Source: Anthoceros angustus (taxonomy: Eukaryota; Plantae; Anthocerotophyta). From it: a DNA stretch of 64,000 nucleotides. A program made the position numbers and the translations under genes. This document shows, in pieces, positions 18,983 through 43,562 of the stretch. Location of the stretch: NCBI GenBank assembly GCA_010909165.1, contig MU008158.1, forward strand, positions 3,435,478 to 3,499,477. The letters are read 5' to 3'. The notes under the pieces are model-generated. The model saw only the letters and a list, made by a program, of their open reading frames with translations. It was not told where the DNA came from and made no database searches. The stretch's first letter is position 1, and every line of letters starts with the position of its first letter.

Positions 18983-21900
18983 TGTGGCACGACTTTCGCT
19001 GACGGCCAGCCAGGCGCGCACAATCCCGTGTCGTTGTAGGAAGGAGTCCGTTCCCAAGGGAATGATAGGCTCCGTTTGCCGCGTTTCAGACGATTCTTAC
19101 TTCACTTTGCGTCCGTTCAGTCTCAACGCACACATTCATCAGTTCGCATCTAACTACTCGCAACGTTCACCGCACAGGCCCGGTGTGGCCAAACGTTTAG
19201 GGACCCGTTCGCGTCCGTATCGTTCACGTTCGTCACTTGCACCTCTAGTCCGTTCTCTCTCACACTACACTCATCAGCCTTAGGGAAAAACGCGGGGGCT
19301 ACACAGTCCGGACCTCCTCCGTCGTTCTGCCGGGCCTCTCCGTCCGGGCTCTACACGCCCTCCCGGAGTTCCTCCGGCTCACACGTTCCGGTCCGTTCGG
19401 CCGGCTGCTGCGGACGAACACGGGTCCCCAGTCACCCTTCCTGCACACACCACCACACGTTAGGGTCCGTCACCAGAACCTTGATCAGTCTCTCCGGGTA
19501 TCGTGCACCTTTCGATGACTCGGGACTCACGTTAGCAAGAAGACGACAAGTGCGCAGAGCGGCATCAACACCAAGAGAAGATACTTTACTTAGGCGACCT
19601 CGGCCCTCTTATACTACGCCGAAGGTCGGCGCCTTTATTACACCCTATTACGGGCGGTGGCTCTAGGTTGGGAGCTCGGTCGCCCTAATCGGCCGCCTAC
19701 CATCCTATTCCTCCCCTCCTATCTCCTTCGTCGGCGGTGGGGCTGGGAAGGTCCCGGGTTCCGCCTCGGGATTGGTGGTCCAATCTCCCGGCGATTGCGG
19801 CGCAATCGGATGATCCGGCGGACCCCTTCCTCTTCCGGAATCACAGCCGGGTTGGGCTCGGCGGTCGGCGACCGTTACCTGTCGTCCCCACAGCCCCGGT
19901 GGGTCCCCTTCGGTGGGGGCCACCCTATGCTCCCCAGCGTAAGTCGGAGGGACTCCTCCTTACTTCTGAGTCGGACCTCGAGGTCCGGCCTCGACCCGAG
20001 TCGGAACTTGAGTCGCCCCTTAGTCGGTCTGGGTCCGGTCTCATCTGGGGTTCGGACCTCGGTCCGAACTTATTCAGTCCGGTCCCAAGCTCGGACCCCT
20101 TCGCGGACCTCTTACTGCTAGGTCCTCATCCCTTCCCACCGACCCTTGTCTTGGGTCGGTTTGGCTTCCTCCTTCCGCTCCCCCTTCAAGGCCGCCGCCT
20201 CTATCTTCCCGAGCAGGTTGCAGCGGACTTACCCTGGGATTCGTTGTATTGGCCGCGTCCTGCTCCTCCTGATGCTCTTCTCCCCCGCTACCGTCGTCTC
20301 CAAACAGGGCCACTAGAGTCCCCGTGCTGTCCCCATGCCCTTCATCCCCTTCTGAGCCTTCCAGGGGTCCGTCTATTTGTAGCGGGGAGGCTTCAATGCT
20401 TAAGGAGCTCGGCGTGGTAATAGGCAAAGTCCGAATCAACTTCTTTGGATTGCCTCTTCCACGTGTGCGGAGCACCGATACTCCCTTGGTGCTCGGGAGG
20501 TGGCGTCTTTGCCCCTTGTTGGACCACCTCCCTGCCGGGTTTGGGTGGGCGGGCCGTATCACGCGAGGCTACAAGCGCCTCGGTCACCTCACCGCTTGTT
20601 GTTGCTCACTTTGCTCCGGCTCCGTCGTTTCGCTCGTTGCTAGCTTACCGCCATAGCGCGCTCCTTCCGCCTTTCTTAAGCGGACGGCGGCTTCTTTTAC
20701 CGTCCAGTGCTCTCGCTCCTCCGTTCATTCTGGCCGTTAACTCCGCCATCTCCCTCTCCAGGCGGTCGGGCAACTCTGCCCGATTGCGGGCCTCGCCCAG
20801 GTCCTTCTCCATTTCGGCGACGTCCTGCTCCCTGTTCCATCGCCTTACTTCCTCCGTCCGCCAACAGAGCTGGAGCCGCTCTATTTCTCGTTCGTGATCC
20901 GCGATCACGCCCTGCAGATTACCATTCCTCTCAATGGTAACTTGGAGCTGCAGCTCCAGAGTCTCCTTGCGGTCTTCCATCTCCTGCCGCTGGCGCTCCA
21001 CCTCACGCAACTGAGACCGGAGATCCTCCATCTCCTTGCCGCGTGCTTCCTCCTCCTCGGCATGGCTGGCCCGTACCTGCTCCGCCGCCTCCTGCTCCTT
21101 CTTCAGGTTAGCCGCAGCTATCCCTGCCGTCTCCCTCCACCGGTTCCGATCACGCCGATAGTGATCACGATCGGTCTTAGCGGCGACCGCCTCCCCTTCA
21201 AGGCCCCGCCTCCTCGCCTCCTCCTTGGCGTTAGTCGGTAAGGCCGCCTCCGCCAGGTCACGAGCCTTCTCCGCTTGCGCCCGGGCCTCCTCTGCCTCCT
21301 GCTGCGCTACTCCTCTCCGCCTGCAGAGGTCTTCAGCCCGTGCTTGGGCCTCCTCTGTGCTGTTGCTCACCCGGTGAAGGAATTTAGTCAGTCTGTCGGA
21401 TGGACGGACTTCCCTCTCGGCCTCCTGCGTTTCCCTTCTTGATGCGGCCGAGCTTGGCCTCCTCCTTGCCTCTGGGCCGCCTCCAACCGCCTCCTCGGAG
21501 GAGCACCATCGCCTCGGGTGGCTTCTACTTCACAGGTCTTCTCGGCATCCCGAGACCCCAAAGCATACCGTCCATGACGGTAGCTGTGACCCCGTGTTTC
21601 TTCCACGGCCGCCACCGTGAGACCCCACAAAGTCCGTAGTGGGAGGCGGGCATTTCACGGTCCGCCAAGGACCTCCATACATGATCCGGAGTAAGTCGGG
21701 GGTTCTCGGACCTAATCGGGGCCCTTAGGTCTGAGTCTTGGCTCGAGCTTCACCCTCCTTGGCCCTCTTGGCGTTCCTTATTTGCCCTCTTCGTCACAGG
21801 GCTCGGAGGGTGAGGGGTCGGGAGCTAGCCCTTTTGCCCTCTTCGTCACAGGGCTCGGAGGGTGAGGGGTCGGCCCCCACCTCGGGCGCCCGCTCGATCT

Positions 21901-24192
21901 CTCCCTCCTTGGCGGCGTCCCTTCGCCCTCCTTACGCCTCTTGACCTCTTGCCACTCAGGTGGGCGGGGGAGACGAGCCGTCCCGAGGTCTTTGCGTTGT
22001 AGCATCTTGCGCCTCTTCGGTTCCCGAGTCCGGGCAACTCTGCCCGTGCGGGCCTCTGGGCCGCCTCCTCGCCTCCGCTCATTCCGCCGCCTCCTCGTTC
22101 CCTCCTGCTGCGTTGATTGCTCCGGAGGAGGCACCAGGAGAAGGGAAGCGGGGATTTCTTCCCATACTTCCCTGGGTGGTGAGGGGGTCCGTTCCAGACG
22201 TATGGAGTCCGGAATCCCTCGATCGTCCTCCTCCGGGTCCGTTTGGCCTTAGGGGTGGCCCCCACCTCGGGCGCCCTTGCACGCCTCCGCTTCCTCCGGC
22301 CGGGCGCCGCTCGATCTCTCCCTCCTTGAGCTCGAAATGTCCCCATACATGGATCGGTATGGGGCGGTCCAATGAGGCTTCTCGCTCCTCGGCTGCGGGC
22401 CTCTGGGCGCAGGCGAAGATAATCCTTCCCAGTCGCCCTCTTCCCAGCGCGCATGCGGGAACACCAACAAATTATCACCAAGGTGATCCACCTTGGTGAG
22501 CAAGTTCCAATGGACAATAATCGGGCTCGGCCTTACTCGGCATCCGGCGGTCGATATCAACCACCGTTGGTTGTCCTGCGTTCGAGCCTCGGCATCCTTG
22601 TTGCGGCCCTATCTTTCCCTTCGCCTTGAGGGGCTCTGGGACTACGCCCCCATCTTCCTCCTTTGGGCGGTTGTAGGCCGCCCTCAGGACCTCCAAGGTC
22701 CATCGCCTGAGATCCTCCCGGAGGTTCTTGGACCGAACCTCCTTGTTGGCCGCCAACATCTTCCGGGCGAACTCCCGGACGGTGACATCAAGCGTCCGAC
22801 TGGAACACGTCTAAGTGCCACTCCTCGACTAATCCTCCCGCTTCCTCCAGCCAGGGCCCAAAGTCCGGATAGCGCCGGGTCACAATGTTGCGCTCTACGG
22901 GTTCCATGGCTCCCGGACCTCCGCAGCCTTTTGGGTGCCATCGCCTTCTTCTCCCCCCTTCTTTGGCGCTGGCGGCGGAGTCGCGGCACGATCGCCCTCT
23001 TCCCCTAGCATGCGGGAACACCGGCAAATTATCACCAAGGTGATCCACCTTGGTGAGCGTGTTCCAATGGACAATGATCAGACTCTGACCCTTACTCGGT
23101 ATCCGGCGGTCGATATCAACCGGCCGTTGGTTGTCCTGCGTTCGAGCCTCGGCATCGCCCTGCGGCCTCTATCTTTCGCCTTGAGGGGCTGCGGGACTCG
23201 CCCCCATCTTCCTCCTTTGGGCGGTTGTAGGCCGCCTCGGGACCTCAAGGTCCATCGCCTGGGATCCTCCCGGAGGTTCTTGGACCGAACCTCCTTGTTG
23301 GCCGCCGCCAACATCTTCCGGGCGAACTCCCGGACCAGAGTGACACTGTCAAACGTCCAGACAGCCTGGAACACGTCTAAGTGCCACTCCTCGACTAATC
23401 CTCCCGCTTCCTCCAGCCAGGGCCCAAAGTCCGGATAGCGCCGGGTCACAATGTTGCGCTCTACCAGGTTCCATGGCTCCCAGACCTCCGCAGCCTTTTT
23501 GGGTGCCATCGCCTTCTTCTCCCTTCGTTGCTGTAGCTGCTGGCCGGAGTCCGCTGGCACGATGCGCCCTCTTCGCCGCGTTCGCTGCTCCAACCCCGAC
23601 GGTGAGCCGCGAAGATGCTGGCGTTCAAAGAGATAGCGCCAGAGAGCCGGGTTGCGGGCGCAAGCTGCGAGGTGTCTCGAGGCGCGGGACCTCCTCGTCG
23701 GCGCCGTTGGAAGTAACCGGGGCGGAAGGCGCCTCTTCCACTGTCGTAGCGCGATGCGCGCACTCGACCTTACGCCCGCTTACTCGACCTTACGCGCGTA
23801 CTGCGGCCTTCGCCGCGGCGTGAATACCGCTATAACGGCCTCCGCCGCCCGGCCTCGCTGCATGCCCGACCTCCACTCAGGGCCGTCCACGTGGCGCCGC
23901 TAAGTCTGTCCTCACGACTCAACTTCTAAGTTACTTTCCCTGGCGTACTTATCCTGTTTTGACCCGGAGTGGGGTCCGGACTTATCCCGTTACACCGGGC
24001 GTGGTCCGGATCTCGCCATAGTGGTACCGGGGTCCGTTACCCACTCCGGAGTCCGATGTATACTCCGGAGTCCAGTCCGGAGCGCCATCCGTGCTTATTC
24101 CTGCTGTTCCGCCTTATTTTACTATTCCAACCTACCAAAAAAAACTAAACCCCACCTAATTCCTACCCCCCAAGGGAAGTCCATAGTCCACA
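18983..24192 (-). mobile_element. Copy A (5210 bp) of a TG...CA-bounded, ORF-carrying element (putative giant solo LTR)
   Basis: Ends TGTGG (18983) and CCACA (24192), flanked by the TSD TGTTT (18978-18982 / 24193-24197). Homologous end to end, in inverted orientation, to 25577-30343. Frameshifted ORF starts MAPKKAAEVWEPW at ~23509. Confidence 0.9.
22451..23575. repeat. ~557-bp internal tandem duplication in copy A covering the ORF start and N-terminal domain
   Basis: GCATGCGGGAACACC...AAATTATCACCAAGG recurs at 22451 and 23008. Both units encode VERNIVTRRYPDFGPWLEEAGGLVEEWHLDVFQ. Confidence 0.85.
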
Positions 24193-24211
24193 TGTTTCAA
24201 CTTGTTATATT

Positions 24212-24387
24212 TGCAGAAGTCACATGGGAGCTAATTGGGAGAGTGTTTAGGTGGTGCAGAAGTCACATGGGAGCTAATTGGGAGAGTGTTTAGGTGGTGC
24301 AGAAGTCACATGGGAGCTAATTGGGAGAGTGTTTAGGTGGTGCACAAGTCACATGGGAGCTAATTGGGAGAGTGTTTAGGTGGTGCA
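24212..24387. repeat. 43-bp minisatellite x4
   Basis: AGAAGTCACATGGGAGCTAATTGGGAGAGTGTTTAGGTGGTGC at 24215, 24258, 24301 and 24344 (last copy with one mismatch). Confidence 0.95.
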
Positions 24388-26280
24388 CCCTACGCAGAGC
24401 AGGTACATGGACAGGTTAAGGTGACAAGGGTGACCCTATATAAGTAGGGCAGGGGTCCCTGCATGTACGTATGTGGGTAGGACGACACCTTGTAGGTAGT
24501 AAGTAGGGAGTAAGTAGGGGGAGCGCTTTACATGTGGACGGGTAGAGACATGTAGGACGTAGGGAGTGGAGAGGTCTCCCTACGTGGGCAGCGGAAGTGG
24601 GGTGTGACACCCTACTTGGATACCTTGGGAAGCAAATTTTCCATATTAGGCAGGTTCCAACCTAGGAAGTTGCTAAAGAGGATTGCATATGCAAGGTACA
24701 AACCTAGGAAGTTGTTAAAAAGGACGGTATAAATAGAATATATTAGAAATAATAGAACATAAATATGTAAGGTAGGTAGTGTAGGGTGCTTTTAACATGT
24801 AGGGCTGCTAAATAGAGGACGGTGGAAATGGTGCCACATGGCAAGGAATCAACGGCCTATATCAAGGAGTTTCACTGTCACTACCAAGGGCCATGCAAGC
24901 TGGGTGTGTAGGGAGTAGCACCCGGGAAGCCTGCGAGGAATCGCGAGGAAGAGCTTGTGCATGCAAAGGGAAGCTAGGGCAAGGACTTGGTGAGAACGCG
25001 GTGCTCATGTGTGTGCAAGGAGAAGGAAGGATGGGCCTTGGAGAATAGAGGGATGCGAGAACAAGTCCGACAATTGGTGTATGCCGTGGCGATGGCCAAG
25101 AAGGATGTAAAGGAGGTCCAGGGCCTTGCGAAGACTAAGGATGACTTATTAAATGGTAAGGACCTCGAGGTAGGAGAATTGAGAAGGGAGAAGGAGACCC
25201 TACAAGAGTCATGGGACTCCCTCCAAACAGAGTTAGAAGAAGCCAAGGGGGCTATGAGTGAAGCTAATCGTAAGGCCTCACAAGAGGAAGAGAGTCGCAA
25301 GAAAGCTGAAGACATGGTACGTCGCTTGATGGTTGTGCGCAAGAGAAGGTTCAGAGCCGATCATGCCTTGCAAAAGAGGATGTTGAGGCGCGTCCATGAT
25401 ACGGAGAAGAAGTATCACGCTATGTCCATACAAGTGGGGCAGTTGGCTATGGAAAGGGAGGCTTTGCAAGTGAAGTGTGGGACGGGCGAGTGGCCTGCAG
25501 ACTTGGAAGATTTGAAGAACAAATATCGCAACCTACAGGTTAATTCGGCCAATAGACTGGCTAGGATCAAGGCTGATGTGGACCACAGATCCTCCCCGGG
25601 GGTAGGGAATGAGTTAGTTTTTGTTTTTTTTCGTAGGTAGGGAGTGCAAAATAAGGCGGAAAGGAAGAAATAAGCCCGAACTACTCCGGACTGTACTCCA
25701 GACTGCACCCCGGAGTAAGGACTCCGGAGTAGGTGGAAGGACTTCGAAGCACACTTAGGAGGAGGACCGGACAACGCACCGGAGTATTGGGATAAGTCCG
25801 GGCCACACTCCGTGGCAGGACGGGATAAGTACGCCAAGTAAAGTAACTTAGAAGTTGGAGCGTGATTTAGGCACGGCCACGTGGGCGGTCGAGTGGTGGC
25901 GGGCATGTAGCGGACCCAGACCTTGAGTTGCCAGGCGGGGTCCGGTATTCACGCCCGTACAGTTTGCGTGAGGCTTAGAGTATCGTGGCGAAACTTAGAG
26001 TAAGCGGCGTAAGGGCGGTGGCGGGCGTAAGGTGGGAGTAGGCCATGCGACCTCAGCGATTCTGGCGGGACACCCTTCCGCCTCCGCGACTACTCCCGAC
26101 GCCGCAACCTCGGAGGAAGACCATTTCTCTTTGCGACCTGCAACGATTTTCGCGGCTCGCCGCCATGGCGCTATCTCTTGGCGCTGGTACCTTCTCGCAG
26201 CTCACCTTCGTGGTTGGGCGGCGCGGGAGAAGAGGAGCGGAGCGGATTGCGCCGAGCGGCGGAGCAAGAAGAAGGCGGTG

Positions 26281-29200
26281 ATGGGACCCAAGAAGGCCGG
26301 GAGGTGTGGGAGCCTTGGCGCCTAGTGGAGCGCAACATTGTCACCCGGCGATACCCCGACTTCGGACCCTGGCTGGAGGAGGCAGAGGACTTGGTAGAGA
26401 AGTGGCATCTTGACATCTTCAGCGCGGTGTGGACGTTCGACAGTGTCACACTCGTCAGGGAATACGCCAAGAAGATGCTGGCCGTCGCCAACAAGGAGGT
26501 CCGCTCCAAAAGTTTGAGGGAGGACCCCAGGAGGTGGACCGTGGAGGTCCTGAGGGCGATTTACAACCGCCCGGCAGAAGAAATTGGGGGCGTAGTCCCG
26601 GAGCCCCTCAAGGTGAGAGGAAAGGTAGAAGCGGCGAAGGCGGCGCTATTGCGACCAGGGACGCAGCGGTCGTCAAACGGCTGGCTGATGTCGGACCTGC
26701 TGGACAGACGGGTGAGGGCAGTGGCTAAGGTCATTGTCCATTGGAACATGCTCACCAAGGTGGATCACCTTGGTGATAATCTTTTGGTGTTCCTGCACGC
26801 CCTACAGCGGGGCAAACGGGCCGACCGGGGGCGTATCATCCTCGCCCGAATCAGTCAAGAGGCGAGAAGCCGCCTCCGTCGGCGATGTCCCCCTTCCTAA
26901 TCCATGTGTGGGGATACCTCAACCTCCTGAAAGAGGGAGAAGAGGAGCGGGCGCTCCGGAAAGGATTGGCGGCCTTGCCGGAGGCAGAGCGGGAAGGGGC
27001 GAAGGCACCCGAGGCGGAGGCCCGACCTCCTAAGACCAAACGAGCCTGGGAGGAAGATGACTGGGAGGGAATTCCGGACTCCATCCGGCTGGAACGGACC
27101 CCCTCGCCGCCCCGAGAGGTATGGGAGGATATCCCTGCCTCCCTCCTTCTGGTTCCGAAGGCGGAGTTGCCCGCACCAAACGGAGCACCCACGGGAGGAG
27201 GCGGCGTTGGCAACGCCCGCCACCGAGAAACCGCCATGTGAGCACGCCAAGCGAGTTGTCAAGAGGTGGAAGGTGGCACCCACCAACGAAGCACCAAGAA
27301 GCGCACCAGTGCCTCTACCCTTGCCACCGAGTGGCGGAGGCGAAGAAGGCGGAGGCGGAGAGAGACGCCGCCTGTGGGCGGGATCACCGCGCAGCCCACA
27401 TCCGGAGCTCCGCCCCTCCTCCGACGGGAGGGGAAAGCAGCGGACTCCGGACCCCTCGCCACCAAGCCCAAAACGAAGACGGCGATGAGCCAGCGCCAAA
27501 CGGGCCAAGGAGGTAGAAGGCGGACCAGGCATCCAGGACATGAGGGTCTGATCGGTCCCGAGGCGAGTCCGGACTCACCGGATCTGCAGCGGTCCTTGAC
27601 GGACCGGGAGATGCCCGCCTCGCCGACCGGGTATCTCCTCAGCACCGTGGAAGAAACACGGCGAGTTTTGGCTACCGTCATGGACGGTATGCTTTGGGGT
27701 CTCTGCGGGATGGCAGAGAAGACCCAGAGGTGGAGGCAACAAGGAGGCACATGGTGCTCCTCCAGGAGGAGGTGGAGGCGGCCCAGGAGGCGAAGAAGAA
27801 GGCGGAATCCCTCGCTCGAATCGAGGAGGGAAAACGCCGTGAAGCAGAGCGGGAGGTCCGGTCTATTCAGCAAGACCTGACCAAGGTCCTTCAGCTGTGT
27901 GAACAGCTGAAGCAGGCACAAGAGGCCCAAGCTCGGGCAGAAGACCTCAACAAGCGACGGGAAGCGGCGTAGGGGGAGCTGGAGGAAGCCCGAGAGCAGG
28001 CGGAGCGGGCTCGAGACCTGGCTGAGGCGGCTAGGTAGGAACAACGCCAAGCCGCGGAGGCTCAGGTGAAGGCGGCGCGTGAGGCGGAAGCCGCAGCTAA
28101 GACCGACCGAGATCACTATCGGCGGGATCGCAACCTGGAGGAGGCAACAAGGAGGCGGCCAACCTAAAGGAAGGAGGCCGGAGCAGTGCACGGGCCACCG
28201 AAGAGAAGGAGGCCAGCAACAAGGAGATGGAGGATCTCCGGGCTCAGTTGCGGGGAGTGGAGGAACATCGGCAGGAGATGGAAGACCGCAAGGAGACCTA
28301 GGAGCTACAGCTCCAAGATACAATTGAGCGGAGCGGGGCTCTGCGGGGCGTGATCGTGGATCACGAGCAGGAGATAGAGCGACTCCAGCTCTGTTGGCGG
28401 GCAGAAGAGGTAAGGCGGTGGAACAAGGAGCAGACCGTCGCCGAAATGGAGAGGGACCTGGACGAAGCACGAAATCGGGCAGAGCTGCCGGACCGCCTGG
28501 GAAGGGAGATGGCGGAGCTTCAGGCCAAAATGAACGGAGAAGCAAGGGCCTTGGACGCAGAAAAGAAGCTGCTGGTCCAGTTGAGGAAGGCGGAGGGAGC
28601 CGCGTCCTGGCGGGAAAGTTGGCGTGAGCGGAGAAGAAGGCGGAGGCGGAGGGAGCACGGAGGTTGCAGGAAGTATGAGCGCCTTGTGGCCTCGCGATCT
28701 GCCTCGGCCCACCGGTGACAAACTGGCAGGAGAGACGGACCGGAGTCGAGACCGGACCACTCTCGACCGGAGCACCTATGGCGAAGGGAGTATCGGGTGC
28801 TCCGGGCGCATGTGGAGGAGGCAATCCAACAAATCGACTCGGATGTTGCCTACTACCACGCTGAGCTTCTCAAGGCGTTGGAAGCTTCACTCATAATCGA
28901 CCAGACCCTCGGAAGGGTCGAGGAGTGGAAGGGGAAGAAGGGCATGGGGACAGCGCTGGGGCCTTGGTGGCCTTGTTTGGTGATAAGGGCAGCGGTGAAG
29001 AGGAGCCCCAGGAGGAGCAGGACACGGCCAATGTAACGGACCTTGAGGTAAGTCCGTCGCAACCAGCCAGGGGGGATAAGGATGAGGGCCCCGAAAGATG
29101 TGGGGAGGCAGGAAACCAACCGGACCCAAGCCAGGGAAGGGACCGGTGAGTGAGGACGGGCCCCTAACAGTAGGCGGTCCGGGGATTGGGGGTCCGGAAC

Positions 29201-29601
29201 TTGAGGACCGGACCCTGGTAATAAGGTCGGACCTTGAGGTCCGGACTCTGGAAATAAGACCGACTCCTGAAGATCGGACCCCGGAGTCGAGACCGGACCC
29301 CGAGGTCCGGACTCAGGAGGAGGGAGGGAGTCAGCCCCGACGTGCTCAGGAGGAGCCGTCAACTAGTGGCCTTACAAGGCATGGACCCACTCGAAGGACG
29401 GGAGAAGAGGATGTGGTGGTTACCGTGGTCGTCCAACCGCCACCGGTAGCCCAACCCGACAGGATATCGGGAAGGGGAAGGGGTCCCACCTCGCGGATCA
29501 TCCGATTGGGTGCGCCGCAGCAGTCAGGGCAAGGAGTGGGGCCATCGGCGCCGAGGCGGAACCAAGGGCATCCCCAGGCCCACCGTCGACGACGGAGATA
29601 G
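26281..29601 (+). CDS. Element-encoded ~1100-aa protein (frameshifted in this assembly): globular N-terminal domain, Pro/Glu-rich linker, long coiled coil, low-complexity tail
   Basis: Consecutive ORF fragments, each mirrored in copy A: VWEPWRLVERNIVTRRYPDFGPWLEE...SVTLVREY...DPRRWTVEVLRAIYNRP...MSPFLIHVWGYLNLL; DHEQEIERLQLCWRAEEVRRWN; IDSDVAYYHAELLKAL. Stop at 29599-29601. Confidence 0.7.
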
Positions 29602-29673
29602 GGGGAGGGGCGTAAGATGGTAGGCGGCCGATTAGGGCACACTGAGCTGGCCACCCGCTCAGAATAGGAGTGT

Positions 29674-29704
29674 AATAAAGGCACCGACCTTGGGCGTAGT
29701 ATAA
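29674..29704 (+). promoter_or_regulatory. AATAAA followed by a TATA-like box, conserved in both element copies
   Basis: TGTAATAAAGGCACCGACCTTGGGCGTAGTATAAGAG in copy B; reverse complement GTGTAATAAAGGCGCCGACCTTCGGCGTAGTATAAGAG at ~19606-19643 in copy A. Confidence 0.55.
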
Positions 29705-30697
29705 GAGAGCTGAGGCTGCTCTAGTAAAGTATCTTTCTTTTGGTGCTGATGCCGCGTTCTCTTGCAGACCCTTGTGCGTCTTCTTGATAGCGTGAGTCCT
29801 GTGTCACTGAGCAGGCACGACAGCCCCGGAGAGACTGATCAAGGTGCTGGTGACGGACCCTAACGTGTGGTAGTGTGTGCAGGGAAGAGCGATCAGGGAC
29901 CCTTGCTCGTCCCGAGCAGCGGCCCACCGTCGGACGGACCGGAACGTGTGAGCCGGAGGAACTCCGGAAGGGCGTGTAGAGCCCGGACGGAGAGGCTGGG
30001 TGAGCGAGGAGGTCCGCTGACCACCCGCGTTTTTCCCCAAGGACGATGAGTGTAGTGAGAGTGGTGAGAGGAACGGACTAGAGGAACGAGTGACAAACTT
30101 GAATGATACGGACGCGAACGGTCCTTAAACGTTTGGCCACGCCGAGCCTGTTCGGTGAACGTTACGGGTAGTTAGTCGTAAAACGATGAATGTGTGTGTT
30201 GAGTCTGAAACGGTCACTGCGTGAGGTGAGAAACGATTGGAACGTGGCAAACGGAGCCTATCATTCTCTTGGGAACGGACCCCTTACTACAACGACACGG
30301 GATTGTGTGCGCCCGGCTCGCCGTCAGCGAAAGTCACGCCACAGCTGATCTTGGTAGAGCTTTGAGGGAGAGGTTGACACCCCCCCACAATGATGATAGA
30401 AAGACGCTAGAAGCAGAAGGTTTGAAGGCTGCGGACCTTGTGACCCAAGCAGAGATGGTGGAGTCGATGAGTCGGAATGGGAAGAAATGAATGAGCAAGC
30501 CGTAGAGGATGACTCGGAGGGGGAAGAGGAAGGCATGGAGCAAGATCCGCTCACGGGAGAATTAGTTTTGCTTGAGGGAATTTTAAGTATATATATGTTC
30601 AATTTTATTATGAAGTATGGATCACTTAAGTTCACTTTCCAATATCTTTGTTTCAAATATGATTTGTATCCAAATATCTAATAATACTTCTTGAATA

Positions 30698-31040
30698 CCG
30701 TACCCAGAGGAGTGGTTCAATAGGATAATGCCGAAATAATTATTAAAAAAAAGGTTCAACATAAATATTTATATGTTTCAAAATTTTAATATTTACAAAA
30801 AATAATTTTATCAAAATTCAAAATTTATTAAAATACATAGGCATATATATAAAACTAATGGATATGTATAGACCTCCCCTAAATATGCCCTAATTTTCCA
30901 CACAAACCCTAGTTTCCTTATTTTTGGCATAATAAATTCATAAAGTTTTACCTATTCAACATTTTAAGTATAATAATTTCTGGATTTTCAACTTTTACTA
31001 ATTCTAATTAATTAACGCCGAATCACCCCTTGGGGTACGG
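30698..31040. mobile_element. AT-rich MITE (343 bp), Tc1/mariner-like, TA target duplication
   Basis: Imperfect 21-bp TIRs CCGTACCCAGAGGAGTGGTTC / GAATCACCCCTTGGGGTACGG (17/21 match), each flanked by TA. Very AT-rich non-coding interior. Confidence 0.75.
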
Positions 31041-31302
31041 TACTTCAGAATTCCGAAACGCTGAATTAAGTAAGAATCTTCAAACCTAGCTTAAGTAGCT
31101 CTTTAATATTATTTCTTTTCAAAATCAAAAGGTCTATGTTGTGTCTATCTTGCGCCGGAAGTACCTACTCTGGTTATGGCAACAGATCTAGAAATATTCC
31201 GTAAGTAGGTACTTAAGAATCACCAAACCCTAAATACTTAAGAATCCCCAAACTTGACTTTAATAGCTCTCTAAGGTTGTTTTGGTTGGAAAATAGGTCT
31301 AT

Positions 31303-31903
31303 AGTAACGGCACTGGTGAAATAAGGTAGAAAGGTGAAAAGTTGAAAAAGGTAAAAAGCTAAGTTAGTAGCTGCCCTGTTTAGAAGATGCATGTGTTGCA
31401 TGCTCATGCAATCTCTTGTTAGAGAGGAATTGCTACGCCACAAATGAAGAGCTGCCTAGAGAGGACTCTTAGTGATTAGTGGTCCGTAAGAATCCCTAGA
31501 TTTAACAGCTGCCTAGTTAAGGTCAGTGTGGATATATAAGGGCTAGAGCAAGGGCTTTGAGGAACAAGTTACAAGTGGGACTCACTCTTTGAGAGAGCGA
31601 GCAAGTGTCACTGCAAGCCTTGTGTTGAGAGAGGCTGGAGAGCTAGCTAGTGAGCTTGTCATGGAATCAAGGGCGAGCTGGGCGTAGATAGCCGATTCCA
31701 TCGTTGTATTCTTGTAATAAAGAGCGGCACCTCGAGGAGGTGGCTGCGAGTCGTCGATGGACGGCGGGCTACTTGGAGCCTAGTCGTGTTGTGAGGTTGA
31801 GAGCGTTGAGAATCGTGCAAGTCTCTTGTGGAGTGAATTGGCGAGGTCCTAGACTGGGAAGCCGACTTGGCTTCCTTCTTGGGCTGCGGTGAGGGGTGTT
31901 ACT
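31303..31903 (+). repeat. 5' LTR (601 bp)
   Basis: Starts AGTAAC, ends GTTACT. TATA (GATATATAAG) at ~31531 and AATAAA at ~31716. Near-identical to 36421-37019. Confidence 0.95.
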
Positions 31904-31956
31904 TGAGTGGTATCAGAGCGTAGTCCATTCCTCCGAGTGACTAGAGAGTGCACAAG

Positions 31957-34900
31957 ATGGTCAATGAGAAGCGTAAGGAGAGGCTGAAGAAGCGGCTCCG
32001 ATCATCCGCCTCAACCAAGATTCATCATCGTCGGAACAAGAGGAAGTGAGAGCGCCGAGAGCACAGCCCATCGAGAGAAGTCGGAGGGAAGAAGCGGATG
32101 GTGGAAGTACTTTATCAAGTTCTTCCGGTGTCTTGGACGATGTAATGACTTCAAGGAAGAAGACAAAGCGAATCCAGCCCACACTCAACAAGGCGAAGAT
32201 GCGGAAGAACAACAAGAAATCTTCCGGAATTAGCATCTTCAAAGTGGCTCAAATCGAGCATGAAGCTAGCCCTACCGGATAAGTATGAGGGAGAAAGAGA
32301 TCTGCAAGTCATTGATTCTTGGATCTATTCTATTGAGACTTATCTCGCCTCATCTGGTGTTGAGCCGGAGTACTACTTAGGTACTGTTGGCAATTTCTTA
32401 AAGGGCTATGCTTTGGTCTGGTGGCGAAGTTATGGTGCTAATGTTGCCCAGGGTAACCGAGCACATACCATCACAGACTGGGCATCCTTCAAAGAAGCCC
32501 TCAAGAAGCAGTTCCAACCTGCGAATGCTTCGCGTCTAAGTAGACAGCAGCTTGACAATATCAAGCAAACAGGTACTGTACGAGATTATGTAAGTACCTT
32601 CAGTGAAGCTGTCATGCACTGCACTACCATGAGTGAAGATGACAAACTGCATCGCTTCATGGCTGGTTTGAAGGATTGGGCTGCTAACAGAATTGAGTTG
32701 CATAGTCCAACTACATTGGCAGAGGCCATTACAGCAGCAGATGCCATCCAGATACTTTCCATTCTAGTACATCCAACTCCTCCAGAAGATTTCGAGGCAG
32801 TACCCGTGGTCGGTATGCCCAGACTAGAGGAAGCTCTAGTAGTGCCGCAGAGGAGCTGCTAAGGACACTGGCGGAAATGGAATTGCAAGAGGCAATTCAA
32901 GAGGAAATTTCATGAAGAAATCGAGGAGCAGAGGCCGCGGAGCTCAGAGAACAGTCAGTATGGGTTCTCGAAAAGGAGTATGCTACTCATGTGGAGAGCC
33001 GGGACATTATGCAAATGAATGCCCGAATGCTGAACAAACTCTCAACGTAGCAGAAGGAGATCCACAGCCCCGAAGACTCAGGATTACGGAAGTGGTCGGA
33101 TCCGAGGATCCCAAATGACGGATCGGCCACATGCGAAGGCGCATGTGGTGAGTCTCAGTCTTGAGGGCACTATTCGGAGGCGGGTGGAGAGCTCATGTAC
33201 ATACATGGATGTATAAATGGAGCGAGCGAGGATGTTGCTTGACTTAGCAACAACACATAATTTCATTTCTCCTAGCAAGGCAAGCAAGCTTGGTTTGACA
33301 TGGGCTAGTACATCTGAGCCATGTAGAGTGAAACAAGCTAAAGGAATGCGCAACACAAAGGTGAATTGCAAGAAGTGCCGTTGCGGATAGGGAATTGGAA
33401 TGGAGCGGTGAGCTTCATTGTAGATATGGATGATCATGAAATCATCTTGGGCTTAGAATGGATGAAGGCCAACAAGGTATGTGTGAACGTGGACTCACGC
33501 ACCATACAGATCTTAGGAGATGAAGAGCACAAAGTGAGTTGTGCGTTCTCAAGCGAGGCTTGGAGACAACATTGATGATATCATCTCTAAGAAAAGCTCA
33601 AATGTTGTGTAAAGGATGGAGAGGAACTCTTTTACTTGTCTGCAAGGACTAGAAGATGGTCTTGAGATGGAGTCTCGAGCGAAAGATTCCAAGGAAGTGC
33701 GTCTTGAATGAGTTCAAGGACTTGATGCCCGATGAGTTGCCTCCTTTACCTCCTAGAAGAATTGTAGATCATGAGATTGATCTCAAGCCGTGAAGTACAC
33801 CGCCTTCAAGAGCGCCATATAGATTATCGCAGGATGAGCTACAAGAGTCAAGAGACAGATGTCTAACACCTAGCCAAGGGCTATGTGAGAATCTCAAAGT
33901 CCCCATTTGGTGCGCCTGTTGTTCACGCAAGAAGAATGGAGGATTGAGATTATGCTTGGATTACGAGCACTCAATCGATAATGTGAAGAATTCTTATCCT
34001 TTGCCAAGGATGGATGACTTGTTTGTGATTGAGAGGTGCTAAGTATTTCACCAAGCTGGATCTAATGGCAGGCTATTACCAGATTCGCATCGCAGAAGGA
34101 CATGAATACAAGACGCTTGTAGAACAAGGTATGGATCTTTTGAGTTCCTTGTCATGCCATTTGGACTCACTAATGCACCAGCCACGTTTCAGACTCTCAT
34201 GAATACTATATTCGAGATCATGGATGAGTGTGTTGTGATATACTTGGATGACATCATGATATACAGTTCTACCTTGGAAGAGCATGTCCAACACTTGAGG
34301 AAAGTGTTAGAAAGGTTAAGAGCAAATTCTTTGTTCTTAGCTATAACAAAGTGTGACTTTGTTAAGGAAGAGATAGACTTCCTAGGATTCATTGTCTCGG
34401 ATGGTATCGGGATGGATCCCGATAAGGTAAAGGCCATACTGAGTTGGCTGCCACGAATGTGCACGAGGTGCGTATGTTTTGGGATTGGCTAGCGTGTACA
34501 GAAGATTTGTACCGATGTTTGCCAAGATTGCTGCCCCATTAACGATCTCTTGAAGAAGGCGAAGGCTTGGAAGTGGGATGATGAATGTCGAGGGCATTCG
34601 AGTTCAAGTTGAAACTCAGACTACCCAGATTGGCAATCTATGATCCAAAGAAGGATATAGAAGTATATCGATCGTCGGATATTGCAATTGGCGGAGTGCT
34701 CATGCAAGAAGGTAGGCCGGTGGCTTACGAATCAAGGAAGTTGCATGAACATGAAAGGAAGTACCCACTTATGAAAAGGAGATGATCATCATCAATTGTC
34801 TCAAGATTTGGAGACATTATCTTCTAGGAAGATCTTTTGTCGTACAGACAATGTAAGCACGAGCTTCTTTACAAATCATGCGACTAAGCGCAAGACAAAG

Positions 34901-36400
34901 CTAGATGGCAAGATTTCCTAGCAATGTATGATGTGTCTATCAAGTACAAGCCGGGAAGGAGAATCTCGTGGCGGATGCTTTGAGTCGCAAGCGAGTTTAA
35001 GTTTGATAAGCTCGAAGAGGCCTAAGCTAGCGCAACACGATGGTGATTGAGCCAAGGACACTCACACGCATCAAGGAAGCTTATCTGCGAGATCCATTAA
35101 TCGATTGGATCAATGAAGTGGAGCAACCGGATCTAAGTTTAAGCTTAGAAATGGCTTGTTGATGTTCAAGCAAAAGCAGATTGTGATTCCCGATTCTCAT
35201 GTGTTGAGAAGGAAGTTGCTTGCAGTGTCATGATGTGCCAAGTGCAGTCATAGAGGAATTGACCCAACTTATGAGAAGTTGAGAAAGGCTTTTATTGGCT
35301 GGAATGTACAAGCATCTTGAGTATGTTAAGTCTTGTGTAGATCGCCAGGATAAGGTGGAGCAGACAAATCCGAGGTTTGTTGCAACCCCCCTATTCCAAG
35401 TGGGCCTTGGAAAAGTATATCAATGGATTTCATTATGCCATTGCCACCAAGAATGGACACACTATCATGACGGTGGTTGATAGATTCAAGCAAGCACACT
35501 TCATCCCTACAAAGAAGCGGTGAAAGCTTAAAGTTGCTCGATTGTTCAAGAAGCATGTATATGTGTTACATGGACGCCTATGCATTGTGAGTGAGAGATC
35601 CCAGTTCTGCGAGTTTTGGCAACTTATGAAGAGCTTAGGAGTGCAATTATGTATGAGCACGGTACCACCACCACGGATGGATCAACAGAGAGGGTGAAGA
35701 ATCCAAGAAGAATACTTACGACACTATGCGGATGGACCGGTGACGGAGTAATCATCTTGAGGATGCAATTTTGTTATAATAACATACATAGCTCCACGGC
35801 TACACACCTTTTCGGATGACAGTAACGAAGCAATGGACGTAGTTTCCATGTTGAATGCTAGCGTGTTGAGACAGCGAGAGAACCACGTGAATTCATTGAG
35901 CGATTAAGGGCGGGCATGAAGTTGCTAAGAAGATATTGGCCAAGGCTCGGGGCAGCAAAAGAAGTTTCTTGGCACAGCAAGAGGCGAGTTTCAAGTAGGA
36001 GACAAGGTGTGGGTGAAATTGAAGAATTTCCCACTACCACAAGGTGACCTCAAAGTTAAGGCCTAAGTATGGAGGACCTTTCGTAGTTCAAGCGCATTGG
36101 AAATGTGGCTTACAAACTACTGAATGGATCTTCTCTCATAATGTGTTTCATGTCTCTTTCTTTGAAACCATTTGTGATTTCGAAGAGAATGAAGATATGA
36201 ACAGAAGGATTATGTCATCCCGGTTCAACACAATCATGGTCTGCGGAGATTGTTGAATTCTGGCAGAGAGAAGTGCCTCTGTCGTGGTAATGTACCAGTA
36301 TCAGGCTTCGTGGTTATGCAGATCCTGCGGGTTTCACTTGAAGATGTGCAACAAGGATCATGGATGATCTCGCGTTACCGGAGGTCATTGAGGACAATGA
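31957..36400 (+). pseudogene. gag-pol polyprotein, heavily frameshifted in this sequence
   Basis: Gag (LPDKYEG...WASFKEALKKQF...IKQTGTVRDY), zinc knuckle CYSCGEPGHYANEC (~32980), protease remnant (LLD..THNFIS), RT (MPFGLTNAPATFQ, YLDDIMIYS), RNase H (IGGVLMQEGRPVAYESRKL), integrase (TDGSTERV, KLRPKYGGPF). Order PR-RT-RH-INT is Ty3/gypsy. Confidence 0.9.
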
Positions 36401-36420
36401 CATCTTCCGATGGGGGAGAG

Positions 36421-37019
36421 AGTAACGACCGTGAAATAAGGTAGAAAGGTGAAAAGTTGAAAAGGTAAAAGCTAAGTTAGTAGGCGCCTGTTAAGAAGAT
36501 GCATGTGTTGCATGCTTCATGCAATCTCTTGTTAGAGAGGAATTGCTACCACAAATGAAGAGCTGCCTAGAGAGGACTCTTAGTGATTAGTGGTGTAAGA
36601 ATCCCTAGATTTAACTGCCTAGTTAAGGTCATGCGGGATATATAAGGGCTAGAGCAAGGGCTTTGAGGAACAAGTTACAAGTGGGACTCACTCTTTGAGA
36701 GAGCGAGCAAGTGTCTTGTTGCAAGCCTGTGTTGAGAGAGGCGTGGAGAGCTAGCTAGTGAGCTTGTCATGGAATCAAGGCGTGCTTGATTGGGCGTAGA
36801 TAGCCGATTCCATCGTTGTATTCTTATAATAAAGAGCAGCACCTCGAGGAGGTGGCTGCAGTCGTCGATGGGCGGGCTACTTGGAGCCTAGTCCGTGTCG
36901 TGAGGTTGAGGCGTTGAGAATCGTGCAAGTCTCTTGTGGAGTGAATTGGCGAGGTCCTAGACCGCTGGGAAGCCAGCACTTGACGCTTCCTTACTGGCTG
37001 CCCAGTGAGGGGTGTTACT
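36421..37019 (+). repeat. 3' LTR (599 bp)
   Basis: Starts AGTAAC directly after the PPT and ends GTTACT, followed by the TSD TCTAT. Confidence 0.95.
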
Positions 37020-37918
37020 TCTATGGTGATATGAGGGTGCCGGAACTATGCCTCATTTAACTACCTTTACTTGGAGTTGTGCCGCCGGCATAACTGCAGC
37101 TGAACCGGCCACCCATCTTTGAGTCCACATGTGTGTATTCCATAGCTATCATGAGCGGATACTGCATAGCCAATTCTGCAACAAAATGGCACAACTTACA
37201 AAATGTTATTAGACGACGTGCTCCTCGGATGCCTACAAAGAAATTGGATTGCAGCAAGCCTTTGATCGCTGGTTGGGGCGGCGAATTGGCACAGGCGATA
37301 GGCCTACCTAGCCCTGGACACATGAAACTGACGTCTGTTTAGTGTGTTCGTTGTGTGAAACCCTCTGAAGTGGATGCCGTGAACAAACGGTTCTGGCTAG
37401 ATCGCCAGTCGCGAAGATGCACCTCTTTGAGCTCGCCTTGCAACGTTTCCGTGGATGGCCTTCTTCCACAGGTGGTGGCTGTGAATTGTGCAAGTGTTGG
37501 ATCCATTCAGGCAGTGTCCCGTGCCTTACGAATGCACTTGATGTCTCTGCCTGTTTTCCTTGCAGGTATGGAGGGTAGACCACAAGATCGCAAACGTCTG
37601 CAAGGGAGAAGGATAGCAGCCGCGGTTGCGCTGCATTGCTTTCGCTTTATTGCCTGCATTGTACAGCCAGACTCTTCTTGTGCCCTTAGCGTACTAAGCC
37701 TTTCCACCATGAACCGGGCTGGAAGGCAGCAACTGCAAGCTGCGCTACGCCGTGCTTCTCATTCCCAGGCCTCGCAGCAAGTCCCCTGCCGGAGCTATGG
37801 TGAGGCGTCGGTCCTGATGGATGTGCCGGAACTCTCCTGGCCTTGTTGGTTCTCTAACATACAGGGTCTACATGAGTTTATCATCTTTAATCTTGTGTGA
37901 TTGTACTCTCTCTTCTAG

Positions 37919-40033: not shown

Positions 40034-43000
40034 AACAACTCCAGCGAAGCCAGGGAGCCAAGTTGCCAGCTAACTGTGACGGACGTCGGCTGCCCTCCTC
40101 GACCGTGGACGGCGGTGGCAAGCCGCCTGCCACGTGGGCCGTCCGTGGTGCCGCTGTCGGGGATTACATAAGCCTCGCTTCTCGCGCTCGCCTCTGCTCG
40201 CCGCGCTCGCTTGCCGGACCTATTCCTTTAGACCTGCACCCTGCTTCGGCCTCCGGGTCGAGAGGTGCGGCGCACCTGCTCTCATGCTTCGGAACGACGG
40301 CTGCTTCCTGGCCTGGTTCTTTCGGATTTCAGGCAAGTGCGTGCGCAATCATATACAATGATATGTTGTTTTTTTTTGTTTTATTAACATGTAACAACTT
40401 ATGAGTTTTTCCATTTTATTTTTTATAATTTTATTTTATTTTATTTTTTCAATTGAGTTTTTATTTTATTTTAGAATAATGAGAAATTATATGTAATTTT
40501 AAAATTTCTAAAATAATTATGAATTTTTAAAATTGGAACGTTAGAGCTTGCCTGAATCCGATAGACCCAGACTCGGGAGAAGCTGTTCGTTACGAAGCAG
40601 AAGAGGTGGTCACGTGCGTGCGCACCCCAAGTGCTTGGAGGACGAAGTGGCTTGCGGCTCTACTTCCATGGCGGTATGTCTTTGTCGTGTGTCCTGGGTG
40701 GGGACCGGGGAGTGTGTTCACTCTTAGGGCACGCGGCAGACCGAGCCGAGGCAGGCGGCTCGGTTCGTGGGTTCGTGGGTTCGTGGTCCCACCCCATGAT
40801 CTCAGGTGGTGGTGATTGAGCAGAGTCTCTCCTGCCCTCTCCTGAGCCTGGGCCTGGGTACCAGGCCTGGGCGCCAGGCCTGGGCTCAGGCGGGGAGGCG
40901 GTGGCTGCTTGCGCCGGCTGGGCGTTGGCTATAAGGCCACAGCCGGAAGCACCAGCTGCCTACCCGTTGCGCTTGCTGCGGAGCGCTGCAGCAACGAGCT
41001 CGCTGCACCTGTCCCCGCCCGCCTCTCTCGCTCCCTGCCCCCGCCTTCTTCCCCTTCGTTTCCCTCCAATTTCTCCTCCGCTTCTGCTGCACGGGACGGC
41101 ACGAGTCGCCTCGCCTTCGCTCCCCTCAGCCTTGCTGCTCCTGCTCCTACCCCCGCTGCTGGTGCTGGTGCTGGTGCTGGTGCTGCCCTTGTTACTTGCA
41201 CTTGCAAGTGCAAAGTGCTCTGGCCTGTTTTCTTCTCCGCACTGTGAACCTACAGGCCTTCTCCTCGTGCCCTCCTAATTTCCCACCTGGACCCAGCTCT
41301 GTCTCCTGCAATCCCCATGTTAGCTCGGCTATGTAGCTCACCACCCGCTCTTGCTTGTGTGCGGAATTGGGTTGCTCGCAATTGTGGCAGCTCAGCGTCG
41401 CGACATGTAGATCCTTTCCTTACGCCTTCCTCTCAGCCTCAACTCTAGGTTGGCGCACCCCGCCGGCTCTGTTTTGCTAACACTGCTAACTTCTGACGTT
41501 GAAATTCTTTCCTCTTCTCTTTTGCCAGCAGAGGCTACTTACCGCCGTAGCTTATTTCTTGCTCTCTCGTAATTTACCGCCCACCTCGATTCTTTGCCTG
41601 CAATTAGACTACCTAGCGCTAGCTTATTTGTTGCTTCTACCTGGCAGGACAGTAGCGGTGTCACCCCAGTGCCCCCTGCACAATGGCCTTGCGTTCCACG
41701 GATCCCTTAGTGGTCGGGAGGGTCATAGGAGATGTGATTGACCTTTTGTGCCCTCTGTGAGTATGTCCGTGCACTACAGCATGAGGCAGGTGAACAACTC
41801 CAGCGAAGCCAGGGAGCCAAGTTGCCAGCTAACTGTGACGGACGTCGGCTGCCCTCCTCGACCGTGGACGGCGGTGGCAAGCCGCCTGCCACGTGGGCCG
41901 TCCGTGGTGCCGCTGTCGGGGATTACATAAGCCTCGCTTCTCGCGCTCGCCTCTGCTCGCCGCGCTCGCTTGCCGGACCTATTCCTTTAGACCTGCACCC
42001 TGCTTCGGCCTCCGGGTCGCTTGAGGTGCGGCGCACCTGCTCTCATGCTTCGGAACGACGGCTGCTTCCTGGCCTGGTTCTTTCGGATTTCAGGCAAGTG
42101 CGTGCGCAATCATATACAATGATATGTTGTTTTTTTTTGTTTTATTAACATGTAACAACTTATGAGTTTTTCCATTTTATTTTTTATAATTTTATTTTAT
42201 TTTATTTTTTCAATTGAGTTTTTATTTTATTTTAGAATAATGAGAAATTATATGTAATTTTAAAATTTCTAAAATAATTATGAATTTTAAAATTGGAACG
42301 TTAGAGCTTGCCTGAATCCGATAGACCCAGACTCGGGAGAAGCTGTTCGTTACGAAGCAGAAGAGGTGGTCACGTGCGTGCGCACCCCAAGTGCTTGGAG
42401 GACGAAGTGGCTTGCGGCTCTACTTCCATGGCGGTATGTCTTTGTCGTGTGTCCTGGGTGGGGACCGGGGAGTGTGTTCACTCTTAGGGCACGCGGCAGA
42501 CCGAGCCGAGGCGGGCGGCTCGGTTCGTGGGTTCGTGGGTTCGTGGTCCCACCCCCATGATCTCAGGTGGTGGTGATTGAGCAGAGTCTCTCTCCTGCCC
42601 TCTCCCCTGAGCCTGGGCCTGGGTACCAGGCCTGGGCGCCAGGCCTGGGCTCAGGCGGGGGAGGCGGTGGCTGCTTGCGCCGGCTGGGCGTTGGCTATAA
42701 GGCCACAGCCGGAAGCACCAGCTGCCTACCCGTTGCGCTTGCTGCGGAGCGCTGCAGCAACGAGCTCGCTGCACCTGTCCCCGCCCGCCTCTCTCGCTCC
42801 CTGCCCCGCCTTCTTCCCTTCGTTTCCCTCAATTCTCCTCCGCTTCTGCTGCACGGGACGGCACGAGTCGCCTCGCCTTCGCTCCCCTCAGCCTTGCTGC
42901 TCCTGCTCCTACCCCCGCTGCTGGTGCTGGTGCTGGTGCTGGTGCTGCCCTTGTTACTTGCACTTGCAAGTGCAAAGTGCTCTGGCCTGTTTTCTTCTCC

Positions 43001-43562
43001 GCACTGTGAACCTACAGGCCTTCTCCTCGTGCCCTCCTAATTTCCCACCTGGACCCAGCTCTGTCTCCTGCAATCCCCATGTTAGCTCGGCTATGTAGCT
43101 CACCACCCGCTCTTGCTTGTGTGCGGGAATTGGGTTGCTCGCAATTGTGGCAGCTCAGCGTCGCGACATGTAGATCCTTTCCTTACGCCTTCCTCTCAGC
43201 CTCAACTCTAGGTTGGCGCACCCCCGCCGGCTCTGTTTGCTAACACTGCTAACTTCTGACGTTGAAATTCTTTCCTCTTCTCTTTTGCCAGCAGAGGCTA
43301 CTTACCGCCGTAGCTTATTTCTTGCTCTCTCGTAATTTACCGCCCACCTCGATTCTTTGCCCGCAATTAGACTACCTAGCGCTAGCTTATTTGTTGCTTC
43401 TACCTGGCAGGACAGTAGCGGTGTCACCCCAGTGCCCCCCTGCACAATGGCCTTGCGTTCCACGGATCCCTTAGTGGTCGGGAGGGTCATAGGAGATGTG
43501 ATTGACCTTTTTGTGCCCTCTGTGAGTATGTCCGTGCACTACAGCATGAGGCAGGTGAACAA
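40034..43562. repeat. ~1.76 kb head-to-tail tandem duplication (40034-41792 / 41793-43557) of the MFT promoter, 5' region and start of exon 1
   Basis: Near-identical copies. The junction at 41793 uses AACAA microhomology (CAGC-AACAA-CTCC versus GGTG-AACAA-TGGC). Confidence 0.95.
41887..41897. promoter_or_regulatory. G-box/ABRE-like (GCCACGTGG) upstream of MFT; duplicate at ~40128, further CACGTG at ~42371 and ~40611
   Basis: Motif match, with a TATA-like CTATAAGG at ~42695. ABA regulation of MFT genes is established in seed plants; function here is inferred. Confidence 0.4.

Follow-up and report, generated by a model that had tools for sequence, protein, structure and literature searches.

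AG...CT termini in a Ty3/gypsy retrotransposon family of the hornwort Anthoceros angustus

The terminal CA of long terminal repeats (LTRs) is treated as nearly fixed for the integrases of retroviruses and LTR retrotransposons, and in plant surveys the first T of such elements is described as invariable. An element of the hornwort Anthoceros angustus that starts with AGT and ends with ACT raises the question of whether such ends are real, whether they belong to a family or to one copy, and how they could have arisen. The element lies in a window of 64,000 nucleotides (assembly GCA_010909165.1, contig MU008158.1, positions 3,435,478 to 3,499,477 of the forward strand), and all positions given here count from the first letter of this window. 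The analysis showed that the AG...CT ends are real and a trait of the whole family, of which no earlier report from land plants appears to exist, and that they represent a one-base-pair variant of a well-known type of element, with precedent in other groups.

The features given by the original prediction, namely AGTAAC at the start and GTTACT at the end of both LTRs, with boundaries fixed by a target site duplication (TSD), by an abutting polypurine tract (PPT) and by a primer-binding site (PBS) 4 nt after position 31903, were all found again. The predicted span of 31298 to 37024 was at the right site and included both TSD copies, the element proper covering 31303 to 37019 with TCTAT on both sides. 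The termini form a 6-bp inverted repeat that is present in both LTRs. When all boundary shifts up to 12 nt in either direction were tried at both ends, a single 5-bp TSD was obtained, flush with AGT...ACT, and the two 4-bp TSD matches were both sub-words of it; within this range no 6-bp TSD appeared, and no shift gave TG...CA, the kind of restoration which the prediction itself had raised as a possibility. The identical PPT 9-mer GGGGGAGAG also stands directly before TGT in a locus of the sister clade (L003), and since the tract keeps the same register before TGT in the nearest relatives, the outermost base pair appears to have been substituted and the boundary not shifted; a boundary shift was ruled out by the shift test and by this common register.

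In the replication of such elements, tRNA-Met primes the minus strand at the PBS and the PPT primes the plus strand. During reverse transcription both new LTRs receive their U3 from the 3' LTR and their U5 from the 5' LTR, and two mutations are therefore enough for four concordant ends. The PBS of the window element, TGGTATCAGAGC, is one that we take to be of the tRNA-Met type. The earlier argument that four agreeing ends exclude a base-calling error thus held, with the amendment that only two independent changes lie behind them.

An artefact, whether a sequencing error, a post-insertion mutation of the window copy or a misplaced boundary, was considered, the window being indel-rich within the element. 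Alignment of the LTR pair gave 567 matches and 10 substitutions in 577 columns (1.7%) in comparison to 28 gap events, 24 of them only 1-2 nt long, a pattern which would fit an unpolished long-read consensus; since the gaps are mostly short and far outnumber the substitutions, the pol frameshifts of this copy may be technical in origin. A short-read contig with a depth of 91.7 crosses the LTR-PBS junction, shows the 4-nt spacer and has no alternative letter listed at 31903, and neither the terminal T nor the spacer is therefore a long-read error. With a TSD that is flush with the ends and leaves no alternative register, with the PPT in the register of TG relatives, and with the same ends in short-read contigs from other sites, we regard an artefact as extremely improbable.

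No second copy or solo LTR of the element was found within the 64-kb window, and the ends of sibling copies were read from short-read contigs of two runs (X1 and X2), which represent one sample in two studies and possibly the sample behind the window. Among the rows listed, to which all junction counts refer, 18 X1 and 4 X2 contigs match from 31303 and have dissimilar sequence before it (mutual agreement of 0.45 in X1 and 0.57 in X2), and because the contigs cover neither of the element's own flanks in the window, these left-end junctions come from other sites. None of the 12 loose-end rows listed breaks off one base later, at 31304, as would be expected of T-first copies. On the right side, TGTTACT is followed by dissimilar sequence in 4 X1 contigs, and 1 more X1 contig (record 4) and 2 X2 contigs align to 37019; including the LTR-PBS contig, 8 right-end junctions finish in T. 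Since the sibling contigs share their ends at junctions with dissimilar flanks, the family was inserted many times with AG...CT ends, which are a trait of the family and not of one copy. TG...CA siblings, whose predominance the prediction had named as evidence against itself, were absent among these junctions.

Relatives were gathered with a reverse transcriptase (RT) alignment and motif, which gave 78 metagenome and 4 viral-collection loci (82 in total). The sequence extended far enough downstream in 56 of the 82 loci, and 29 yielded a PPT-anchored start, which was T in 27 cases, A in one (L004) and G in one (L030). L004 was rejected as a second AG start, its A not being at the LTR start, and the G of L030 was a mis-registration, with TG following a few bases on. 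A Met-type PBS motif was present in 9 related loci, each with CA 2-3 nt upstream of the PBS. In the sister clade, which is the nearest metagenome clade, all 22 LTR starts that could be mapped were T (18 of them TG) and all 17 ends were CA, the rows of these counts including the query and a duplicate (L007/L009). As a separate observation, each of the loci L003, L005, L024 and L056 of this clade contains several LTR copies of its own family at short distances, an arrangement that suggests nesting, the ends being TGT...TCA.

The RT tree comprised 63 selected rows (the window element, 33 proteins and 29 loci; 186 columns), all drawn from RT-similar matches and without an errantivirus or named Galadriel reference. 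The window element was placed on a long branch as sister to, and not inside, a 26-row clade of angiosperm and metagenome elements (support 98/91). Among named elements, its closest RT matches are from plants, with 61-64% identity, and the nearest full-length relatives, with which its RT groups, carry the chromodomain PF00385. The neighbouring angiosperm clade is presumably Galadriel-like, and the RT would then group, with moderate support, with Galadriel-like plant chromoviruses. This label agrees with the tRNA-Met PBS, the 5-bp TSD and the 5.7 kb size, features which are common to other chromovirus clades. The Tanacetum/Solanum group was marginally rejected in the approximately unbiased (AU) test (p 0.046). 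Since all candidate neighbours with readable ends have TG...CA, the AG...CT ends are likely derived from TG...CA, whichever placement holds.

Published elements were compared with the window element. Galadriel elements measure 4.8-12.5 kb with a TSD of 5 or 4 bp (PMC6317226), and Beon1 measures 6038 bp with 631-bp LTRs (PMC3605345); the window element, with 5.7 kb and LTRs of about 600 bp, is similar in size, and it resembles the Galadriel clade in its gag-protease-RT-RNase H-integrase order, its tRNA-Met PBS and its 5-bp TSD. It differs from Galadriel in its AG...CT ends, its 4-nt spacer and its long branch outside the 26-row clade, and the SM1/SM2-Galahad elements of Selaginella end in TG...CA (PMC3350952). 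In the Tcn1 clade, 83% of the members are self-priming and without a tRNA PBS, whereas a 12-nt PBS of the tRNA-Met type is present here. The LTR-PBS spacer of 4 nt compares with 2 nt in the sister clade and with at most 3 nt in the beet chromoviruses described, and would imply a longer U5 overhang.

Since the TSD is flush with the termini, the joined 3' ends would, given the standard scheme, have been CT on both sides. The most likely reading, to which we assign a probability of about 0.6, is a change in the family's own integrase, which would have moved towards CT by way of a tolerated TG...CT stage. A TG...CA ancestor would have passed through TG...CT, a tolerated state, to AG...CT, with the outer base pair substituted at both ends, and an integrase that came to prefer T at the position of joining would explain why the same complementary letter is found at both ends and has been kept since. 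The integrase of the family would now join CT-3' rather than CA-3' ends, and 3' processing would have to take 4 nt off the U5 end in comparison to 2 in the sister clade.

Several points weigh against this reading. The integrase region of the window copy consists of short frame-shifted pieces, too damaged for the end-facing residues to be read, and the change of preference is inferred only. The sibling evidence rests on a single sample; the PPT junction, or one site present in both runs, may account for part of the 22 left-end contigs, a minority of TG...CA siblings could exist beyond the rows listed, and single-end intermediates, TG...CT or AG...CA, were not seen among the siblings. An RT motif served to select the relatives, of which none exceeded 66% identity, and the RT searches gave no intact sibling protein. 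In addition, the support for the placement falls to 80/68 in a 27-row tree, and grouping with a fungal-like clade is not rejected by the AU test (p 0.41). Other searches were negative: none of 667 candidates scored in a gag search in longer proteins, the RT piece alone gave no relative in viral contigs, the pattern of an ACT end plus PBS gave 2 matches in viral contigs, neither with LTR context, and a 21-nt LTR word was absent from the prokaryote genomes and viral contigs searched.

The main alternative, which we consider less likely, is that an unchanged integrase simply accepts a terminal T and that one master with both substitutions founded the visible family. Only two mutations would be required, T is the last letter most often tolerated in the plant surveys, and the low divergence of the LTR pair would be expected after a recent expansion from a small number of masters. 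Against this, under a persisting preference for CA a double variant would be at a disadvantage at each of its ends and would not be expected to prevail, yet it was found in all 22 left-end and 8 right-end junctions listed, and the same symmetric state is described as fixed across the errantiviruses.

The coding capacity bears on whether the AG...CT copies instead owe their mobility to a TG...CA partner acting in trans from another place in the genome. In the Pfam scan, which covered 23 pieces, the order was gag, CCHC knuckle, protease, RT and RNase H, followed by integrase in tblastn (Table 1), and this order identifies a Ty3/gypsy element, bearing out the plant Ty3/gypsy identity first proposed. 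Although pol of the window copy is in pieces and contig depth is far greater on the LTR than on gag (a depth that is not a copy number), all gag-pol domains are present in order, the breaks resemble long-read consensus errors as in the LTR pair, short-read contigs differ from the window at such breaks, and no sibling junction listed has TG...CA ends, so that mobilisation in trans seems quite improbable. In the indel-damaged region where relatives have the chromodomain, no piece had a Pfam chromodomain match, and the frameshift-tolerant scores for 8 relatives were matched by 7 to 39 of 60 shuffles. The interval from the integrase SH3 region to the 3' LTR is about 260 nt, with a longest stop-free piece of 76 aa.

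Table 1. Structural and coding features of the AG...CT element, with positions in the window
Feature	Position	Strand	Remarks
Left TSD, TCTAT	31298..31302	+	sole 5-bp TSD across shifts of ±12 nt
5' LTR, 601 nt	31303..31903	+	AGTAAC...GTTACT
Spacer TGAG, 4 nt	31904..31907	+	U5 end to PBS
PBS, 12 nt	31908..31919	+	TGGTATCAGAGC, tRNA-Met type
gag capsid	32149..32859	+	stop-free frame; Retrotrans_gag E 1.8e-19, Ty3_capsid E 6.6e-13
CCHC zinc knuckle	32978..33028	+	zf-CCHC E 3e-8
Aspartyl protease	33217..33572	+	split over two frames; RVP_2 E 5.6e-5 on one piece, other weaker
Reverse transcriptase	33794..34441	+	in pieces, longest with YLDD; RVT_1 E 1.4e-23
RNase H	34585..34853	+	in pieces; RT_RNaseH_2 E 2.1e-9
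Integrase zinc finger and core	35126..35783	+	many frameshifts; tblastn of relatives, pieces without Pfam match
Integrase SH3-type C-terminal region	36023..36166	+	SH3_Tf2-1 E 0.005, below curated cut-off
Site of chromodomain in relatives	36170..36400	+	scores within shuffled range
PPT	36412..36420	+	GGGGGAGAG, abuts 3' LTR
3' LTR, 599 nt	36421..37019	+	AGTAAC...GTTACT
Right TSD, TCTAT	37020..37024	+	

The closest precedent for the ends is found in the errantiviruses of Drosophila (gypsy, ZAM and Idefix subgroups), for which AGT at the left, AnT at the right and up to 7 complementary terminal bases are described (PMC5408687, PMC3601003), in agreement with what the prediction had said of these elements, and the AGT...ACT termini of the window element fit this pattern. 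The errantiviruses are insect elements with env and sequence-specific targets, in comparison to the plant-type RT, PBS and PPT found here. That the element is of errantivirus type, or took its ends from an errantivirus by horizontal transfer, is hardly credible, although the trees contained no errantivirus sequence: the named elements closest to it in RT are from plants, the PPT and PBS match those of plant relatives, and the short interval after the integrase SH3 region leaves no room for env. The likeness of the ends is likely convergent. As for the determinants of end specificity, nothing was found in the accessible parts of the ZAM integrase paper or the cranberry preprint.

Among plants, a family-wide departure from TG...CA with normal TSDs is known, and so is CT at the right end. 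The LTR_retriever survey, which covered 50 plant genomes, reported seven non-TGCA types, with copia making up 89% and only the first T invariable, and three gypsy-like TG...CT copies in soybean (10.1101/137141); in lotus the first base is always T, and TG...CT is the most common non-TGCA type with 6203 copia copies (PMC9804982). AA...CA copia families, with one end changed, have been published (PMC5659011), TGTT and AACA end types are among those of Rosaceae, and outside plants 3 of 26 CoDi families of diatoms are without TG/CA (PMC2806351). The plant cases are mostly copia, mostly changed at one end and non-palindromic, whereas the window element is gypsy, changed at both ends, and has a 6-bp inverted repeat. 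AG...CT is not among the end types in the accessible lists from LTR_retriever and lotus, and our literature word searches, which left most subscription papers outside, found no AG...CT land-plant element; an A as first base is not unique in plants, given the AA...CA families. The claim that motif-based finders would skip such a family agrees with the 5'TG/3'CA requirement in REXdb prediction (PMC6317226) and with the non-canonical motifs of LTR_retriever, which all keep the first T.

As a wider and more tentative proposal, which we would hold with less than even confidence, the family may represent a deep-branching hornwort chromovirus lineage whose integrase was re-tuned to CT-3' with a 4-nt U5 overhang, independently of the insect errantiviruses; AG...CT would then be a recurrent second solution of end recognition, and a hidden share of the LTR elements of non-seed plants would be missing from motif-filtered sets. 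An AG...CT family beside TG...CA sister clades provides a natural pair for finding the integrase residues which read the joined base, and allows a test of whether the errantiviruses took the same route. Motif-filtered annotation, by the REXdb filter or the LTR_retriever list, would drop such families, with a bias in the repeat content and the lineage ranges recorded for non-seed plants. The replication scheme itself is unchanged by the finding.

Other features of the window were also noted. The AT-rich stretch at 30900-31042, just left of the element, has very high summed contig depth and belongs to another repeat family. The segments 18983-24193 and 25576-30343 form a large imperfect inverted pair whose arms, with about 62% GC and long frames, are 71-74% identical across as much as 3 kb. 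Eight frames from it had no Pfam match above the curated cut-off; the pair probably represents two head-to-head copies of an unclassified repeat, and a near-perfect 43-bp tandem array lies between its arms at 24212-24387. At 40034-43562 a segment is duplicated in tandem, the copies being near-identical and the period about 1.76 kb; this duplication may be recent or an assembly artefact. On the minus strand, a long unbroken frame at 59872-61947 encodes a plant CAD1-like MACPF protein. A tree of 22 rows, chosen from 120 matches and without a named hornwort sequence, puts it with one sister on a long branch that lies apart from the mosses, liverworts, lycophytes, fern and seed plants included, and by elimination this place of a single gene makes a hornwort the likely host. 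The identity of the protein is 74% to its best match and does not exceed 59% for proteins with a name.

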